The notes beneath the pieces were generated by a model, which worked only from the letters and a program-made list of their open reading frames with translations, searched no databases and was not told where the DNA came from. Shown here in pieces: positions 24,392 through 31,887 of a DNA stretch of 64,000 nt. The position numbers and the translations under genes are program-made. The stretch is from Octopus vulgaris (lineage: Eukaryota). How positions within the stretch are numbered: the first letter of the stretch is position 1; the number at the start of each line of letters is the position of its first letter. The stretch covers positions 14,322,001 to 14,386,000 of the forward strand of contig OX597823.1 of assembly GCA_951406725.2 (NCBI GenBank). Reading direction: 5' to 3'.

Positions 24392-24788
24392 GACGGCGAA
24401 CTGGCAGAAGCGTTAGTACGCCGGGCGAAATGCGTAGCGTATTTCGTCTGCCGTTACGTTCTGAGTTCAAATTCCCTCGAGGTTGACTATGCCTTTCATC
24501 CTTTCAGGGTAGATTAAATAAGTACCAGTTACGCACTGGGGTCGATATAATCGACTTACTCCGTGTGTCTGTCCTTGTTTGTCCTCTCTGTGATTGGACC
24601 CTTGTGGGTAGTAAAGAAATAGGTATTTCGTCTGCCACTATGTTCTGAGTTTAAATTCCGCCGAGGTTGACTTTACCTTTCATCCTTTCGGAGTTGATAA
24701 ATTAAGTACCATTTGCGTACTGGGTCTATCTAATCGACTGGCGCCTTCCCAAAAATTTTAGGCCTTGTGCCTAGAATAGAAAAGAATA
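24392..24788 (+). mobile_element. SINE family A dimer
   Basis: Headed unit plus headless unit, joined at 24622/24623. Ends in the alternative tail. Confidence 0.85.
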
Positions 24789-25099: not shown

Positions 25100-25140
<41 letters not shown>

Positions 25141-25219
25141 AGTTGAGTTGTGGGGTATCGCACGAGTGGGATTATATAAGAAAAAAGGTTTGAAAATGCA
25201 ATTTAAACGATGTTTATTT

Positions 25220-25260
25220 ACTTAACCGGTTTCACTCTTTGGTAAAAGATTGTCAAAAGT
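25220..25260 (-). ncRNA. Variant minimal hammerhead ribozyme in the 3' pLTR
   Basis: The minus strand reads ACTT-TTGACAA-TCTTTTACCAAAGAGT-GAAAC-CG-GTT-AAGT: stem I ACTT/AAGT, U3-A8 core, stem II hairpin, palindromic ACCGGT stem III. Confidence 0.7.
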
Positions 25261-25273
25261 TACATTTAAGGAA

Positions 25274-25500
25274 ACATTGAATAATATGGGTTCAAAAAAG
25301 TTTTTTACATAATTGTCACATTGAATATTATGCATTCAAAAAAGTTTTTTACATAATTGTCACATTGGATATTATGGGTTCAAAAAAAGTTTTTTACATA
25401 ATTGTCACATTGAATATTATGCATTCAAAAAAGTTTTACATAATTGTCACATTGGATATTATGAATTCAAAAATGTTTTTTTATACATAATTGTCACATT
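25274..25500. repeat. ~44-bp tandem repeat x5 inside the pLTR
   Basis: Unit ACATTGAATATTATGCATTCAAAAAAGTTTTTTACATAATTGTC. Also present in both other pLTR copies. Confidence 0.9.
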
Positions 25501-26063
25501 ATTTGGGAAAATTTGGCAGAAAAGGATAAAACAAATATATTATTGGGAATTGGTTGCGTTAATTATTGGTTGTCGCAAATTGTCACATTACATGTATATA
25601 TATACAATCTATGGTATATATATACAGCGTTTTGACAGCAAAAATTAAAATGGCTTTTTTGTACATCTCAGAATATTTTAAGTATGTTTTTACTGACCTG
25701 TCAGTATTAGCAGAAAGGCTGAACTGAGAGAACAGAAGAAGTAGCCAATGTGGTGTATACTTCCCCTTTATGCATGAATGATTTTGGGGTTATCAGGAGG
25801 TTAGTATGCGGGTGTGAATAGATGTGTCTGTGCCTGCTGGTCAGACAGCGTCTGTTTGTCACACACATATATATACACACAAACACACACACACACAACA
25901 ACACACACACACACACACATAGTATACAAACACACACCACATACAAACAACACACACACACACAGAACACACACACCCACACACAACGCACCCACATATA
26001 TCACATATACACACAGCACACAAATATAACATGTATCTATATATAACATACACAGATATATAA

Positions 26064-26133
<70 letters not shown>

Positions 26134-26918
26134 TACATAATATAAATATCACACAAATACACCTAGCATATATATACACACACATACAATACACACATAC
26201 AGCATGTAAGTAATATATATACACAATATATGCATGCAATATACATACGTAATACATACATATAATATATATATATATAGACAATGCATATACATATATA
26301 CACATATACATATAAATAGTGTTTACATACACATACATAGATGTACCACATATACACATAACACACATACATACAATGCATACACATACACATACGCATA
26401 CATATAATATATATATACACACACACACACATAACATACATACACACACAATGCATACATATATATACACACAATGCATATACATGTATTCATGCACATA
26501 TAACACACCTACAATATACATATATACAGTGCACACATACACACAAATATATACACTTAATTGTACACGTACATATACAATACACATACATACAATATAC
26601 ATATACACAATGCGCATGCAAATAATGTACATGTTTATACACACATAAACATGCAAATAAATATACACACACACACATACACACACACACATATATATAC
26701 ACATATATATATATATACACACATACATACATACATACATGCACATACATATATTTTTTCACACACATACACACACATATATATATAAAAAATTCACCAC
26801 CCCCACACACACAAATTACAAACCTATAGCGTACACACTCAAATATATCTCTACATGCCGCACATACACACAAACAAAGTACTAACATATACACACATAC
26901 CATGCATATACACACACA

Positions 26919-26966
<48 letters not shown>

Positions 26967-27138
26967 AGATACATATGTAAATACATACACACGTACACAA
27001 TGCTCACACACACACACACACACACATACACACACACCCGCACACAGTGCACACACACACACACATATATACACACGTGCACACACACACACACATACAA
27101 CGCGCGCACACACACATATACACACACACGCACACAGT

Positions 27139-27170
<32 letters not shown>

Positions 27171-27355
27171 CACTCACACACATACATCACCTACATATAT
27201 ATAATGCATGCGTGTGCATGCCACGTATGTGTGCGGTCAATGCCCGCTAGTGTGTCCTATGCGTGCCGATGCGCGCATGTGCCCGCCCGCACGATATGCT
27301 GTGAGCGTGCGCGCGTCCCTGTGTGCTTGCTCTGGATGTGCTTCCAGGGGGTATG

Positions 27356-29632
27356 TTAGAGTATGTTTAGTTGTGGTCTGTATTTTTGAATAAGATTACT
27401 TTCCTTATTTATTCGTGTTTGGTCTGTGGTGTTGTCCGAGCATTGGTATAGTGGGAAGACTAAGAATTTGGGGGACTTATTGTGTGCACAAAGGTCTAAG
27501 TGTCCACTTAGTGGTATCTGTCTTGTGGAGGGGTCCCTCAGTTGTTGTCGGTGAACTGTCATTCTGTCTCTGAGGGTAAGGCTCGTTTGCCCTATGTAGT
27601 CTTCGTGGCATCCTTCACACCTTATGACGTAGAGTAAATTTTTTGATGCGCACGTGAAGTTATTTTTTATGATGAATGTGTGTCCCGAGTGGAACTTGTA
27701 CGACGATCCCTCAATGAGGTGGATGCGGGTCTTACAGTTGGGGCGACCACATTTTTTGATGGTGGGCGGTGGGTTTGTGTTGTGTAATTTTGCGTTGGTG
27801 AGGAGGTTTTTTAGGGATTTAGGTTGTCTCTTACTTTTTATTATTTTATGAGCTGCCAGTATTTTTTTCAGGCGTGGGTCTTGATTTAGTTGTGGAATGT
27901 TGTTGTATATAATAGTGTAAGCTTCTGCATTCCTTGGGTTGTGTGTTGAGAGATAAGGGAGGCTATTGACTGTACTGTGGATGTGTTTGGGTTTTCGAAG
28001 GTCTTGAATGTTGATTGATTTGGCCCGTTCTATTCCGTTGTCTACTAGTGATGCCGGGTAATGTCTTTCGAGAAGAATTGCCCTTAGTTCCCGGAGTCTT
28101 CTATTTCGTGTTGTGTCATTTGAGACAATAGTGCAGATTCTTCTCGCTAGGTTGAAGGGGATATTTGTCTTTGTGTGTTTTGGGTGATTGGAGGTGAATA
28201 GAAGGTATTGTTTAGAGTCAGTGGGTTTGTAATGGATGTCAGTTTCAATGTTGACGCCTTTTTTAATGATTAGGATGTCAAGAAAAGGGAGTTGGTCCTG
28301 ACTATATTCCATTGTGAATTGAATGTTGTTATTTACACTGTTGATAAGGTTTTTGAAGTCTATAAGTTGGTCGAGTGTGTGGGACCATAGGATGAGGCAA
28401 TCATCTAAGTAGCGTTTCCAGTTCTCCAACAGGTATTTGTGGAAAGACTGGCCGTACTTATATTTGGATTTTTCATAGATATGTGATTCCAGGTAGGCCA
28501 TCACCAGGTTTGCATAGGTAGGTGCAACTTTCGTACCCATTGCAGTCCCTGAGACCTGTCTGTAAGTGTTGTTGTGGAAATACATGAAGTTGTTTTGCAG
28601 AATAAATTTGAGGCCCTCAATTATGAATTCTTTTTTAATTCTTTCCGGGATCTCATTGGGATATTTATCCAGCCAGAATTTAATGGCTTCCAGTCCAAAT
28701 TCATGTGGGATTGTGGTGTAAAGATTAATAACATCAAAAGAAACGATTAAGGTGTCTTTATCGGCATGTTTGGGGAGATGGTTTAATAGGTCCAGGTCAT
28801 CTCTTACAATACTTGGAATGTGTTTCAGTATTGGCTTTAAGATGATATCTATAAAGTTGCTAAGTCTGTGTGTTTCACAACTTGGGCCTGCCACTATTGG
28901 TCTCAGTTTGAGATCAGTGGGATGTGGTATAGTGATGCAGGTTGAAGTGGACTTTTTGCAAGCTTCTGTGATAATTTGACTCTTGTGTATTTTTGGAAGC
29001 CCATAGAGTGTGCTGGTTTTGCAATTAAATTTAGTAATGTAGTCGCATTCCTTTGCTGTCAAGTCATTCCGGTGTTGGTAAATGAGTGCCTTCAGATTGG
29101 TCATTGTTTTGGATTGCTGGTAGTCGACTACTCTTTCGTAGTATGTGGTATCCTCTAAAAGGAGAGATACAGAGTTTTTATACTGCTCAGTATTCATAAT
29201 AACGACCGTACTACCCTTATCAGCTTCCTTTATTGTGACGTCATGATTGTCTCGTAGCGTATGGATGATTTCCCATTCTCTTTTACTGGTGTTGGGTTTG
29301 AGTTTAGGTTGTGGGAGTTCACCATAAGGGAAGTTGGAGATGTAATCGCAAAATTTGTCTAAGGTTTTGTTTTTGCCTTTTATGGGATTATAGTTGCTTT
29401 TGTTACAGACCATTGATTCGTCGTTATTATTAGTTTTTCTGTCAAAAAATTCCTCTGTGAGGCGTAATTTTCTGCAAAAGTGCGAGATGTCATCCTGTAT
29501 TTCCCTCAGGTTAGGGTATTGCGGAGTTGGGGTGAATTTTAGTCCTCTTGAAAGGATTTTTATTTGTGGTGTCGACAGGTTTAGGTTAGAAAGATTCACT
29601 ATTTTTGGTTTTTCGGGGTTGGTATCTACCAT
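27356..29632 (-). CDS. Penelope-like reverse transcriptase plus GIY-YIG endonuclease (ORF2, 758 aa)
   Basis: IVNLS...LSRGLKF N-terminal motif, LYGLPKIHK, LRPIV, SFDVINLYT, QVSGTAMG, RYLDD, LPFLDI, Cys linker CGRPNCKT(R)...C, LLYVIRCEGCHEDYIGQT, R..VH. Uninterrupted. Confidence 0.97.
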   Translation of the reverse strand: MVDTNPEKPKIVNLSNLNLSTPQIKILSRGLKFTPTPQYPNLREIQDDISHFCRKLRLTEEFFDRKTNNNDESMVCNKSNYNPIKGKNKTLDKFCDYISNFPYGELPQPKLKPNTSKREWEIIHTLRDNHDVTIKEADKGSTVVIMNTEQYKNSVSLLLEDTTYYERVVDYQQSKTMTNLKALIYQHRNDLTAKECDYITKFNCKTSTLYGLPKIHKSQIITEACKKSTSTCITIPHPTDLKLRPIVAGPSCETHRLSNFIDIILKPILKHIPSIVRDDLDLLNHLPKHADKDTLIVSFDVINLYTTIPHEFGLEAIKFWLDKYPNEIPERIKKEFIIEGLKFILQNNFMYFHNNTYRQVSGTAMGTKVAPTYANLVMAYLESHIYEKSKYKYGQSFHKYLLENWKRYLDDCLILWSHTLDQLIDFKNLINSVNNNIQFTMEYSQDQLPFLDILIIKKGVNIETDIHYKPTDSKQYLLFTSNHPKHTKTNIPFNLARRICTIVSNDTTRNRRLRELRAILLERHYPASLVDNGIERAKSINIQDLRKPKHIHSTVNSLPYLSTHNPRNAEAYTIIYNNIPQLNQDPRLKKILAAHKIIKSKRQPKSLKNLLTNAKLHNTNPPPTIKKCGRPNCKTRIHLIEGSSYKFHSGHTFIIKNNFTCASKNLLYVIRCEGCHEDYIGQTSLTLRDRMTVHRQQLRDPSTRQIPLSGHLDLCAHNKSPKFLVFPLYQCSDNTTDQTRINKESNLIQKYRPQLNIL

Positions 29633-30969
29633 CTGGTGTCGTGGAAACTGATGCCCTTGCCTAAAAAAGGAATCCTGGGGGTTCTTCTATTTGCGGTATT
29701 TTGCTGTATGTGATTCTGTCCCCCGTTGACATGTCTGTTGAAGAGGTTTTGGTTGTTGTGATTCTGTCCCCCGTTGCTATGTTGTCTGTTGAGGAGGTTT
29801 TGGTTGTTCCAGGGTCTGGGTTGTTGGTGTGGCCTCCTGGAAGAGTTTTGGTTATTCCAGGGTTTGGGTTGTTTGTCCTGGGTGTAATGTTGGTTCCTTA
29901 GAGTGGGTTGGAAACTATATTCATGGTTTAGGAGTGAATTCCTATATGTTGGGGGAGAACTCTGAGTTAGGAGCGGTTTGGGTTGGAATCTACAATCATA
30001 GTTCAGAGATGGGTTTCTAAGTGATGGGTAGGATCTCCGAATCTGGAACGGTTCTTGTGTGGGTTGGGGTCTACGTTGTCTGGTAAAGTTTTGTCGTGTG
30101 ATGATGGGTGTCTCGGTTCTTTTGATGGGATTGTAGTGCTGTCTGTAAGTTCTGTTGTTGTTGTTGTCGATGTTAGGGGTGGTGTGTGTTCGGTGTTTTG
30201 TGGTTGGTTTTCTTTGTTTTTGGCGAGGGGTGTGAGTTGAAGTAGATATTTTAAAATATGGGTTGCTTGAAAGGTGTTCCTTTGTGAACTCTGTTTCATA
30301 ATTGGTGAACCAGCTGTTTTTTTCCCTTCGCTGGAGGGATGTTATTTCTTCATCCTCGCAGTTTTTTCTCCAGAGTTTGGTGGTTTCATCAAGGAGTGCT
30401 CCTTCACAGTGTTTTGAGATTTCAATCTGCATTTCATTGTCAAGGGTCTTGGATTTTTCTTCACTGGTGTTGGCTCTGAGCCGCAAGAGTTCTACTTCCG
30501 TTTTGAATTTTTCAAAAGCTAGTTTCTCCCTGAGGTTTTTTGGTTTTCTGGTTCATTTTGGATGGGTTTTATTTGTAGTTTTCTGGGTAGGATGATAGGG
30601 GTGGAGTTGAGCCACTTTTCATAAATGTCAGCTTTGTTGTTATTTTTTATGAAATTCCAGAAGGCAAACTTACGCGCTTTGAGATTTTTACTCCAGGTGT
30701 TGTTAAGAGAGATTTTTAATTGAGAAGCAGTCTTTAGTTTGCTCCTGCTTTGGGAGCACTGCCGTCTCTATGGATTTCATTAGGTTTTGCAGTGTTGGGA
30801 TGATGTCAGGGATTTGATTGGTTGTTTTGGCCTCCATGAGTCCATTTAGGTATAAGTGCGATTGTTCGACTTTGTTTATTATGGTTGAAAGTTTCGAGGA
30901 GATTTCTTGTAATTCTTTTAGGATATTTTGGTTCATTAAAGATTCTGCTTGTTGTGATTTGGGTGGCAT
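29626..30969 (-). CDS. Upstream ORF1 of the PLE (~447 aa; coiled-coil N-terminus, N/Q/R/P-rich C-terminus), broken by two compensating frameshifts
   Basis: ATG at 30969 (MPPKSQQ) lies just past the 5' pLTR. ORFs 30703-31029 and 29626-30486 share a frame and are bridged by an open alternative frame (LNNTWSKNLKARKFAFWNFIKNNNKADIYEKWLNSTPIILPRKLQI). Shifts at ~30705-30770 and in an A-run near 30540. Confidence 0.7.
29662..29668 (-). promoter_or_regulatory. Candidate -1 ribosomal frameshift slippery heptamer U_UUU_UUA
   Basis: ORF1 codons ccU UUU UUA GGC AAG. The -1 frame is open from here into the ORF2 ATG at 29632. Confidence 0.7.
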
Positions 30970-31085
30970 TTTCGGGACTCGTGTGATGTTTATATATATA
31001 TAAAAAAGTTGAGTTGTGGGGTATCGCACGAGTGGGATTATATAAGAAAAAAGGTTTGAAAATGCAATTTAAACGATGTTTATTT

Positions 31086-31126
31086 ACTTAACCGGTTTCA
31101 CTCTTTGGTAAAAGATTGTCAAAAGT
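31086..31126 (-). ncRNA. Variant minimal hammerhead ribozyme in the 5' pLTR (sense to the ORFs)
   Basis: Identical to 25220-25260. About 115 nt upstream of the ORF1 ATG. Confidence 0.7.
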
Positions 31127-31758
31127 TACATTTAAGGAAACATTGAATAATATGGGTTCAAAAAAAGTTTTTTACATAATTGTCACATTGAATATTATGC
31201 ATTCAAAAAAGTTTTTTACATAATTGTCACATTGGATATTATGGGTTCAAAAAAAAGTTTTTTACATAATTGTCACATTGAATATTATGCATTCAAAAAA
31301 GTTTTTTACATAATTGGCTACTTCTTCTGTTCTCTCAGTTCAGCCTTTCTGCTAATACTGACAGGTCAGTAAAAACATACTTAAAATATTCTGAGATGTA
31401 CAAAAAAGCCATTTTAATTTTTGCTGTCAAAACGCTGTATATATATACCAAAGATTGTATATATATACATGTAATGTGACAATTTGCGACAACCAATAAT
31501 TAACGCAACCAATTCCCAATAATATATTTGTTTTATCCTTTTCTGCCAAATTTTCCCAAATAATGTGACAATTATGTATAAAAAAACATTTTTGAATTCA
31601 TAATATCCAATGTGACAATTATGTAAAAAACTTTTTTGAATGCATAATATTCAATGTGACAATTATGTAAAAAACTTTTTTGAATGCATAATATTCAATG
31701 TGACAATTATGTAAAAAACTTTTTTGAACCCATATTATTCAATGTTTCCTTAAATGTA

Positions 31759-31799
31759 ACTTTTGACAATCTTTTACCAAAGAGTGAAACCGGTTAAGT
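31759..31799 (+). ncRNA. Variant minimal hammerhead ribozyme in the inverted pLTR
   Basis: ACTTTTGACAATCTTTTACCAAAGAGTGAAACCGGTTAAGT read directly on the + strand. Confidence 0.7.
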
Positions 31800-31838
31800 A
31801 AATAAACATCGTTTAAATTGCATTTTCAAACCTTTTTT

Positions 31839-31887
<49 letters not shown>

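Follow-up and report, generated by a model that had tools for sequence, protein, structure and literature searches.

A Penelope-like element with two overlapping reading frames

The 64,000-nt stretch of Octopus vulgaris DNA analysed here (OX597823.1; the window, at its full length) is microsatellite-rich and of animal-like composition, and it carries on the minus strand one Penelope-like element (PLE; 31846 to 25136 of the window), both outer ends of which adjoin (TA)n. The element holds two overlapping open reading frames (ORFs), of which the upstream one, ORF1, is the main subject of this study. ORF2, which encodes a reverse transcriptase (RT) and a GIY-YIG nuclease, is read in the -1 frame relative to ORF1 and opens 58 nt 5' of the stop codon of ORF1 (Table 1). 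Direct and inverted copies of a pseudo-long terminal repeat (pseudo-LTR) are both present, as is characteristic of endonuclease-bearing (EN+) PLEs. By its sequence, the element is an EN+, Neptune-like Penelope. A preliminary description of this DNA had proposed ORF1 as an unrecognised PLE ORF1 with a coiled coil and a prion-like repeat tail. On re-reading, its coordinates and quoted peptides were all correct, including LKELQEISSKLSTIINKVEQS, which begins at 30921 (heptads from 30921), PWNNQN at 29862 and 29814, and NGGQNH at 29775 and 29727; it overlooked a conserved -1 slip site by which ORF1 would be joined to the RT.

ORF2 contains the PLE RT motifs DKG, GTAMG and YLDD and matches the Pfam family RVT_1 at 33.1 bits against a cut-off of 29.6. 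The search with ORF2 retrieved 235 relatives at E<=1e-20; the named ones among the 120 matches listed come from molluscan or mollusc-symbiont assemblies, and no RNA run is listed as containing element sequence. None of these 120 reaches the size of an ORF1-RT fusion, the longest being 839 aa (427-1357 aa searched). The GIY-YIG/CCHH residues read LLYVI..C..C..YIG..R..H..H, and the Pfam GIY-YIG family lies below detection in the window ORF2 and above the cut-off in the nearest RT relative, P0001 (72% identical). The layout from RT to nuclease agrees with the Neptune rows in the text of Fig. S2 of PMC8557442. In Mytilus, the model P0025, annotated as 'Toll-like receptor 4', combines a PLE RT fragment with a TIR domain and is probably misjoined.

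Table 1. Features of the octopus element, in window coordinates.
Feature	Position	Strand	Remarks
Inverted pseudo-LTR copy	31313..31846	+	adjoins (TA)n
Upstream direct pseudo-LTR, partial	31002..31316	-	98% identity to 25136-25446
Candidate minimal type-I hammerhead, U3-A8 core	31086..31126	-	own pattern scan
Identical hammerhead candidates	25220-25260 (-), 31759-31799 (+)		own pattern scan
ORF1, ~447 codons on read-through	29626..30969	-	split by two compensating 1-base indels
ORF1 piece A: ATG at 30969, predicted N-terminal coiled coil	30714..30969	-	frame 0; stop at 30703
First copy-specific break	30712..30713	-	leads to stop at 30703
ORF1 piece B	about 30712-30536	-	frame +1
Conserved core, predicted all-helical (W..L..RK..W, PRK, EI.LL..R, D..M, W...C..EE..S...W)	30250..30711	-	
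Second copy-specific break, frame restored	30535..30536	-	contig comparison
ORF1 piece C	to stop 29628-29626	-	frame 0 again
Basic N/R/Q/P/T-rich low-complexity tail	29671..30249	-	lineage-private 48-nt duplications at 29710-29862
U_UUU_UUA slippery heptamer, ORF1 frame (Pro-Phe-Leu-Gly)	29662..29668	-	inside ORF1/ORF2 overlap
ORF2, 776 codons open: PLE RT (YLDD at 28411), Cys linker, GIY-YIG with CCHH	27356..29686	-	
Third Cys of CX2-5CxxC linker, reads Arg in window copy	27725..27727	-	
Downstream pseudo-LTR	25136..25749	-	ends at (TA)16, 25104-25135

ORF1 is a large family conserved upstream of one RT clade

Searching with piece C of ORF1 as a single sequence failed: residues 5-100 gave 44 candidates, none at E<=0.001, and the ESM Atlas returned no usable match. 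Therefore, we collected 122 loci via the RT (L-numbers; protein relatives carry P-numbers). At L002 and L011, pieces B and C match adjoining stretches of one open frame 5' of the RT (for L002, E 2e-12 and 6e-15, adjacent and in the same frame), and they also match L005, L007 and L077. Continuous homologous ORFs of 405-434 codons lie upstream of related RTs. The read-through ORF1 aligns with its closest relative, P0145, at 43% identity over 243 aa spanning both breaks (E 1e-68). A seven-row profile of the core retrieved 1,013 clusters (50% identity) at E<=0.001, of which 496 pass 1e-10 and 50 pass 1e-30. No Pfam family reached the cut-off in the window ORF1 pieces or in six locus ORF1s, and none turned up in more than two of the 123 rows; PHROGs gave 0 matching families among four proteins, and no relative was present among the viral contigs searched. 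In an RT tree of 45 rows, built without L011 (RT segment too short) and without named references, one 17-row clade (100/100) takes in the window together with five of the loci that carry this ORF1. By sequence comparison we thus showed that ORF1 is a large family without a Pfam model, conserved 5' of one RT clade. The PLE ORF1 of the preliminary description is thereby upheld as real and conserved, and homologues do occur upstream of other PLE RTs.

Evidence for purifying selection differs with the depth of comparison. Between L002 and L011, the proportions of non-synonymous and synonymous differences (pN and pS) are 0.21 and 0.85 in the ORF1 core, much like the 0.18 and 0.72 at the start of the RT. 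Among near copies (39/98 rows) the picture is less favourable: 10 synonymous and 20 non-synonymous changes in ORF1, with an expected share of about 0.2 (9 and 15, counted by hand, when six indel-flanking rows are left out), compared with 7 and 2 in ORF2, so that the ORF1 signal is far weaker. Selection is thus supported between families and weak among near copies. The weak signal and the empty searches with piece C would suit an upstream frame that is gene-like by appearance only, whether an A/C-rich leader or host sequence that had been captured. We give this explanation practically no credence; it is refuted by the continuous homologous frames, the 1,013 clusters and a pN far below pS, and the confidently predicted fold described below also speaks against it.

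Two observations on the collected sequences deserve record. L002:71-5354 is a partial head-to-tail tandem, in which ORF1, RT and pseudo-LTR are followed by a second, identical ORF1. PLE proteins P0016, P0022, P0030, P0123 and P0124 and contigs L076-L122 are filed in bacterial bins (Thiodiazotropha, Solemya symbiont, SUP05, Bacteroidota and others); these sequences are most likely host DNA.

A candidate -1 slip site between ORF1 and the RT

The overlap reads CCU UUU UUA GGC in the ORF1 frame and thus holds an X_XXY_YYZ heptamer in the zero frame, as expected of a -1 frameshift site. U_UUU_UUA is the HIV shift site (PMC5009743). The RT lies in the -1 frame at 6/6 fetched loci that hold this ORF1 family, and the in-frame heptamer is U_UUU_UUA at five of the six and U_UUU_UUG at L077. 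Three more loci in this RT clade, with contigs that do not reach the ORF1 core, carry U_UUU_UUG (L015), A_AAA_AAC (L008) and an imperfect C_AAA_AAC (L042), and an in-frame T_TTT_TTA occurs at none of 4,316 other codon positions checked. The site also leaves a footprint in protein: among 95 homologs of at least 330 aa (out of 164 matches, the 69 shorter ones being excluded), 78 have Phe-Leu within their last 35 aa, compared with 6, 7 and 2 in three upstream control windows. Additionally, a short G/A-GC-G/C-A word recurs about 6 nt past the heptamer in the junction alignment. When contigs of four public runs were compared over 28900-31010, the junction gave no indel row, and gap-free contigs bridge it in three of the runs; one bridging contig is a diverged subfamily with 29 other letters in 270. 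We infer that a -1 ribosomal frameshift, giving abundant ORF1p (the ORF1 product) and a rare ORF1-RT fusion, very likely operates at this site.

Several results weigh against this conclusion. The 80 nt 3' of the slip site in the window fold worse than shuffles (z +1.6), and folding beats shuffles in only two of seven family members (L001, z -4.0; L005, z -3.0). A consensus fold of the family junctions has 0 pairs, and a pseudoknot search at the junctions found none that beats its shuffles; no conserved 3' stimulator, such as is expected 5-9 nt past a slip site, emerged at the family junctions. In run X7, two low-depth joints (~13-14 versus ~1,600) bypass the junction. A Mytilus gene model, P0017, has the ORF1 tail and RT in one frame, and in the window copy an AUG at 29632, beside the ORF1 stop, would allow reinitiation.

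This AUG, which overlaps the last ORF1 codons, raises the alternative that ribosomes reinitiate, or initiate internally, at the ORF2 start and make a separate ORF2 protein, in the manner of L1 ORF2. P0001 is called with a similar start, and another PLE clade has AUGA stop/start overlaps (L024, L028, L033, L035 and L036). However, 0/6 relatives have an RT-frame Met upstream of the first conserved motif, and separate initiation leaves both the heptamer and the Phe-Leu footprint unexplained; we regard it as highly unlikely for this clade. L1 ORF2 itself is not produced by frameshifting (PMC5009743).

Alternatively, the frames may be joined at the RNA level, by an intron or by polymerase slippage on the U6 run. 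PLEs do contain spliceosomal introns (PMC4209133), and P0017 is an in-frame gene model. Against this stand the heptamers A_AAA_AAC at L008 and G_GGU_UUU/C in another clade, which fit tRNA re-pairing better than a fixed homopolymer; G_GGU_UUU is known as a strongly shifty heptamer (PMC5009743). A contig of run X1 also crosses the junction gap-free and without a joint, a weak argument given that X1 is only guessed to be RNA and that contigs drop rare forms. RNA-level joining therefore seems very improbable, and ribosomal frameshifting remains our preferred explanation.

Predicted anatomy of ORF1p

The N-terminus of ORF1p has the periodicity of a coiled coil. Over residues 13-46 of P0145, the hydrophobicity of the family is best fitted by a period of 3.50, a result that 0/2000 shuffles reach, and residues 49-72 show a period of 3.55. 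Of the two heptad-like helices quoted in the preliminary description, the N-terminal one is thus upheld, whereas the second is weakly periodic (p 0.05). A PDB sequence search gave as best match a designed coiled coil, aligned over the ORF1p N-terminus (E 3e-05), and a trimer prediction that made no use of the alignment scored 0.02, which speaks neither for nor against a trimer.

The proposed W/F-rich middle domain corresponds to the conserved core, in which W, R, P, E, D and S positions are kept. AlphaFold2 models of P0145 residues 1-267 (mean pLDDT 90) and of the 166-aa core of L002 (pLDDT 98, pTM 0.87) are all helical, with no strand of three or more residues, and the core is modelled as four long helices. 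Among the 123 family rows scanned, neither an RRM nor a zf-CCHC match was found; the window ORF1 pieces hold four scattered Cys. Fold searches of PDB and BFVD gave no match at E<=0.001, and the best matches were generic helical bundles (Z 9.0-9.1, rmsd >6; best Z 9.0, rmsd 6.3, 124 aligned), below the mark of about 13 for such bundles. L1 ORF1p and capsid proteins are both missing from the fold-search listings, an absence that does not exclude them. Because only generic bundles are returned, the fold of the core is unplaced and its novelty unproven. An ESM Atlas match of P0128 to a coronavirus nucleoprotein (0.78, 0.75) was rejected; it lies under the tool's mark, and the basic tail probably accounts for it.

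The tail is basic and of low complexity. In the window it contains 31 K+R, 6 D+E and 53 N+Q in 194 aa, of which the 85 aa that precede the slip site contain 32 N+Q and 11 R+K. Across 78 homologs, the 110 aa leading up to Phe-Leu average 16% N, 13% R and 9% Q and are net-positive in 76. The PWNNQN and NGGQNH repeats are 48-nt DNA duplications present in 0/164 homologs. Judged from these sequences, charge and low complexity of the tail are conserved and the repeats are not. Prion-like domains are Q/N/G/S/Y-rich and charge-poor. The low-complexity C-terminus and the repeat positions given earlier are real, but the repeats are lineage-private, and 'prion-like repeat tail' overstates the case for a basic tail with unconserved repeats.

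These features bear on what ORF1p may do, for which the preliminary description had inferred an RNA-chaperone or condensate-forming role. Even if the -1 frameshift is right, the core could bind membranes or a host protein, with a role in targeting, trafficking or counter-silencing, rather than package RNA: it has no RRM or zinc knuckle, the structures it matches best are unspecific bundles of long helices, among them syntaxin Habc (Z 8.5, rmsd 6.4, 118 aligned), and membrane roles have been proposed for other ORF1ps (PMC3905857). However, these Z values lie under the helical-bundle mark, and the tail keeps its positive charge in 76/78 homologs while its sequence is not kept, as expected of an RNA-binding disordered region. 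We consider a non-packaging ORF1p unlikely, though less so than the alternatives to frameshifting, and favour an ORF1p that packages RNA.

Lesions of the window copy

It had been claimed that two compensating frameshifts hide ORF1 from ORF finders. The indels proved to be copy-specific. In all four runs, dominant contigs are one base longer at 30535 (depth with/all 23.9/23.9, 274/312, 7.4/13.9 and 239/267) and one base shorter at 30712-30713 (23.9/28.7, 274/274, 7.4/10.3 and 232/312). Because the dominant contigs of 4/4 runs lack both breaks, these belong to the window copy or its assembly. The frame was not wholly hidden, since ORF finders do pick up piece C (308 aa). Piece A matches the ORF1 family profile at E 1.7e-05, being itself a row of that profile. 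If correctly assembled, the window copy would yield only an 88-aa stub. Moreover, the third linker Cys, intact in the nearest relatives and nearly invariant in the RT alignment, reads Arg. Given that ORF1 stops after 88 codons and that this Cys is replaced, the window copy is probably dead. In run X7, depth drops toward the 5' end of the element, as 5' truncation would give, although depth is no measure of copy number.

Element boundaries and candidate ribozymes

Each pseudo-LTR has an internal 44-nt tandem repeat of 4-5 copies (31140-31316, 31562-31745 and 25274-25500), and copy number varies among the three. Between the upstream pseudo-LTR and the ORF1 ATG (30970-31002) there are only 21 nt and (TA)6. 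A T-rich stretch followed by AG just 5' of the ORF1 ATG resembles a 3' splice site, and the same is seen in L002 and L011; introns can occur in PLE leaders. From the end of ORF2 to the downstream pseudo-LTR, (CA)n, (TA)n and (ACAT)n are mixed over about 1.5 kb (25860-27350), either as part of the element or as a local expansion.

Our pattern scan for hammerheads found three copies, all inside pseudo-LTRs, a result reached in 1/1000 shuffles; a hammerhead motif at this place is a feature of EN+ PLEs (cf. PMC4209133). Candidates in L002 (3750-3800) and L011 (845-890) have a C3-G8 core and the same GAAACCGGTT, and one in L005 (3237-3292) has a U3-A8 core like the window; helix III is palindromic in all of them. 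Helix II of the window candidate, with two unpaired bases, may be weak, and an Rfam scan found no hammerhead in the window, only microsatellite-driven miRNA matches under the gathering score. A 184-bp tandem unit at 1764-2305 and 24439-24724 of the window is likely a separate repeat family.

Other PLE clades

Two further RT clades also carry an ORF1. In the second, L052, L054, L055, L056, L059, L063, L065, L070, L073, L074 and L075 come from one assembly. Here 11/12 loci examined have an in-frame G_GGU_UUU/C 0-6 nt from the ORF1 stop and an RT read in the -1 frame; the ORF1s are up to 430 aa, helical, with a Q/P-rich tail, and are unmatched by the octopus ORF1 family profile. The third consists of the five AUGA loci named above, also from one assembly, and of L016, L029 and L030. 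Its ORF1 reaches about 700 aa with an RG-rich tail; ORF1 stop and RT start overlap as AUGA at five loci, and a nearby AUG lies in another frame at three. This arrangement suggests that the third clade couples ORF1 and RT by termination-reinitiation instead of frameshifting.

Discussion

Taken together, we propose that the octopus element represents a two-ORF, EN+ Neptune-like Penelope that would produce ORF1p and, by a gag-pol-like -1 frameshift, the RT, with ORF1p forming a ribonucleoprotein (RNP); we put the probability of this reading at about 0.75. In this model, most ribosomes would stop at 29626 and release ORF1p (~447 aa), and a minority would slip back one base at U_UUU_UUA to make an ORF1-RT-nuclease fusion of ~1,200 aa (about 436 + 768 aa). 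Such minority slippage would therefore set a high ORF1p:RT ratio, as in gag-pol. ORF1p would self-associate via its coiled coil and bind element RNA via its basic helical core and basic tail. Because ORF1p would both oligomerise and bind element RNA, the fused enzyme would be co-assembled with its template into the RNP. By analogy with the ORF1p classes of PMC3905857, where a coiled coil with an arginine-rich peptide is described as one ORF1p design, we hold it to be somewhat probable that ORF1p oligomerises, binds element RNA and forms an RNP that incorporates the fusion.

Canonical EN+ PLEs are described as single-ORF elements (PMC8557442, PMC4209133, PMC11167929, PMC6515669), and one biochemical study of a PLE used a single-ORF Poseidon element (PMC11167929). 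In contrast, two overlapping ORFs are present in the window and at 6/6 related ORF1-bearing loci, and compared with the Neptune-type elements as described by Craig et al. 2021 (PMC8557442), the RT here overlaps an ORF1 of ~450 aa and lies in the -1 frame to it. The legend to Fig. 1 of that paper does, however, allow for an ORF1 separable by a frameshift with a pseudoknot in some PLEs, and marks a coiled coil (CC). Full-text searches of the literature on Penelope and Neptune yielded no description of this ORF1 family or of an EN+ PLE slip site; figures, Repbase, Dfam and Arkhipova 2006/2017 lay outside their scope and may contain one. Other upstream ORFs have been reported in parts of this literature: one with a zinc knuckle in a Chlamys PLE (PMC8557442), ones with esterases in some Penelope elements (PMC5408684, PMC3905857), and an ORF1 without database similarity in the Fundulus Neptune CL27 (PMC12602865). 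The last is 420 nt long and non-overlapping, the passages on it mention no frameshift (PMC12602865), and its likeness to the octopus ORF1 is by description only.

The Athena/Terminon and Coprina PLEs likewise have, 5' of the PLE RT, an ORF1 in which a coiled coil is combined with disordered regions (PMC6431247, PMC13159263). Athena and Coprina lack the nuclease and sit at telomeres, whereas the octopus element has a GIY-YIG domain and sits in (TA)n; the ORF1s were compared by description only. Athena/Terminon elements use a -1 frameshift. HIV-1 gag-pol offers the same heptamer, the same frame relation and the same order of structural gene and enzyme gene (PMC5009743); unlike in retroviral gag-pol, a conserved stem-loop or pseudoknot 3' of the site was not found for the octopus element, which also gave no zinc knuckle, protease or capsid-fold match. 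LINE-1 and ZfL2-1 ORF1p are also encoded by the first ORF and have an N-terminal coiled coil, basic segments and a presumed RNP role (PMC3905857). Octopus ORF1p differs from them in lacking the RRM/CTD and the esterase and in its predicted core of four long helices. Because no RRM or zinc knuckle was found, the likeness to L1 ORF1p or Gag is one of position and architecture, with no shown homology.

PLEs are the sister group of telomerase. How their RNA is packaged and delivered is a question made testable by the ORF1 family, with its more than 1,000 clusters, confident model and lack of a Pfam entry, together with the slip site; two points that can be tested are a gag-pol-like stoichiometry in PLEs and the identity of the PLE RNP protein. 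Among the 'hypothetical proteins' of mollusc assemblies and of symbiont metagenome bins, one class is also accounted for by the family, and repeat libraries or gene models that start at the RT omit ~1.3 kb per element. Tentatively, and with less confidence than we place in the model itself, we suggest that a widespread marine-invertebrate clade of EN+ Penelopes may encode a retroelement structural protein of an undescribed class, made of a coiled coil, a new long-helix core and a basic tail, which assembles itself on element RNA, and that the ~1,200-aa fusion may be its working enzyme. If so, truncation of copies at the 5' end and annotation centred on the RT would account for the 'single-ORF' picture, and the coupling of ORF1 to the RT would vary among PLE clades between a U_UUU_UUA slip, a G_GGU_UUU slip and AUGA reinitiation. 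A probably dead copy in an ordinary host context thus reveals a large ORF1 family that lacks annotation and, probably, gag-pol-like coupling in a clade of EN+ PLEs.

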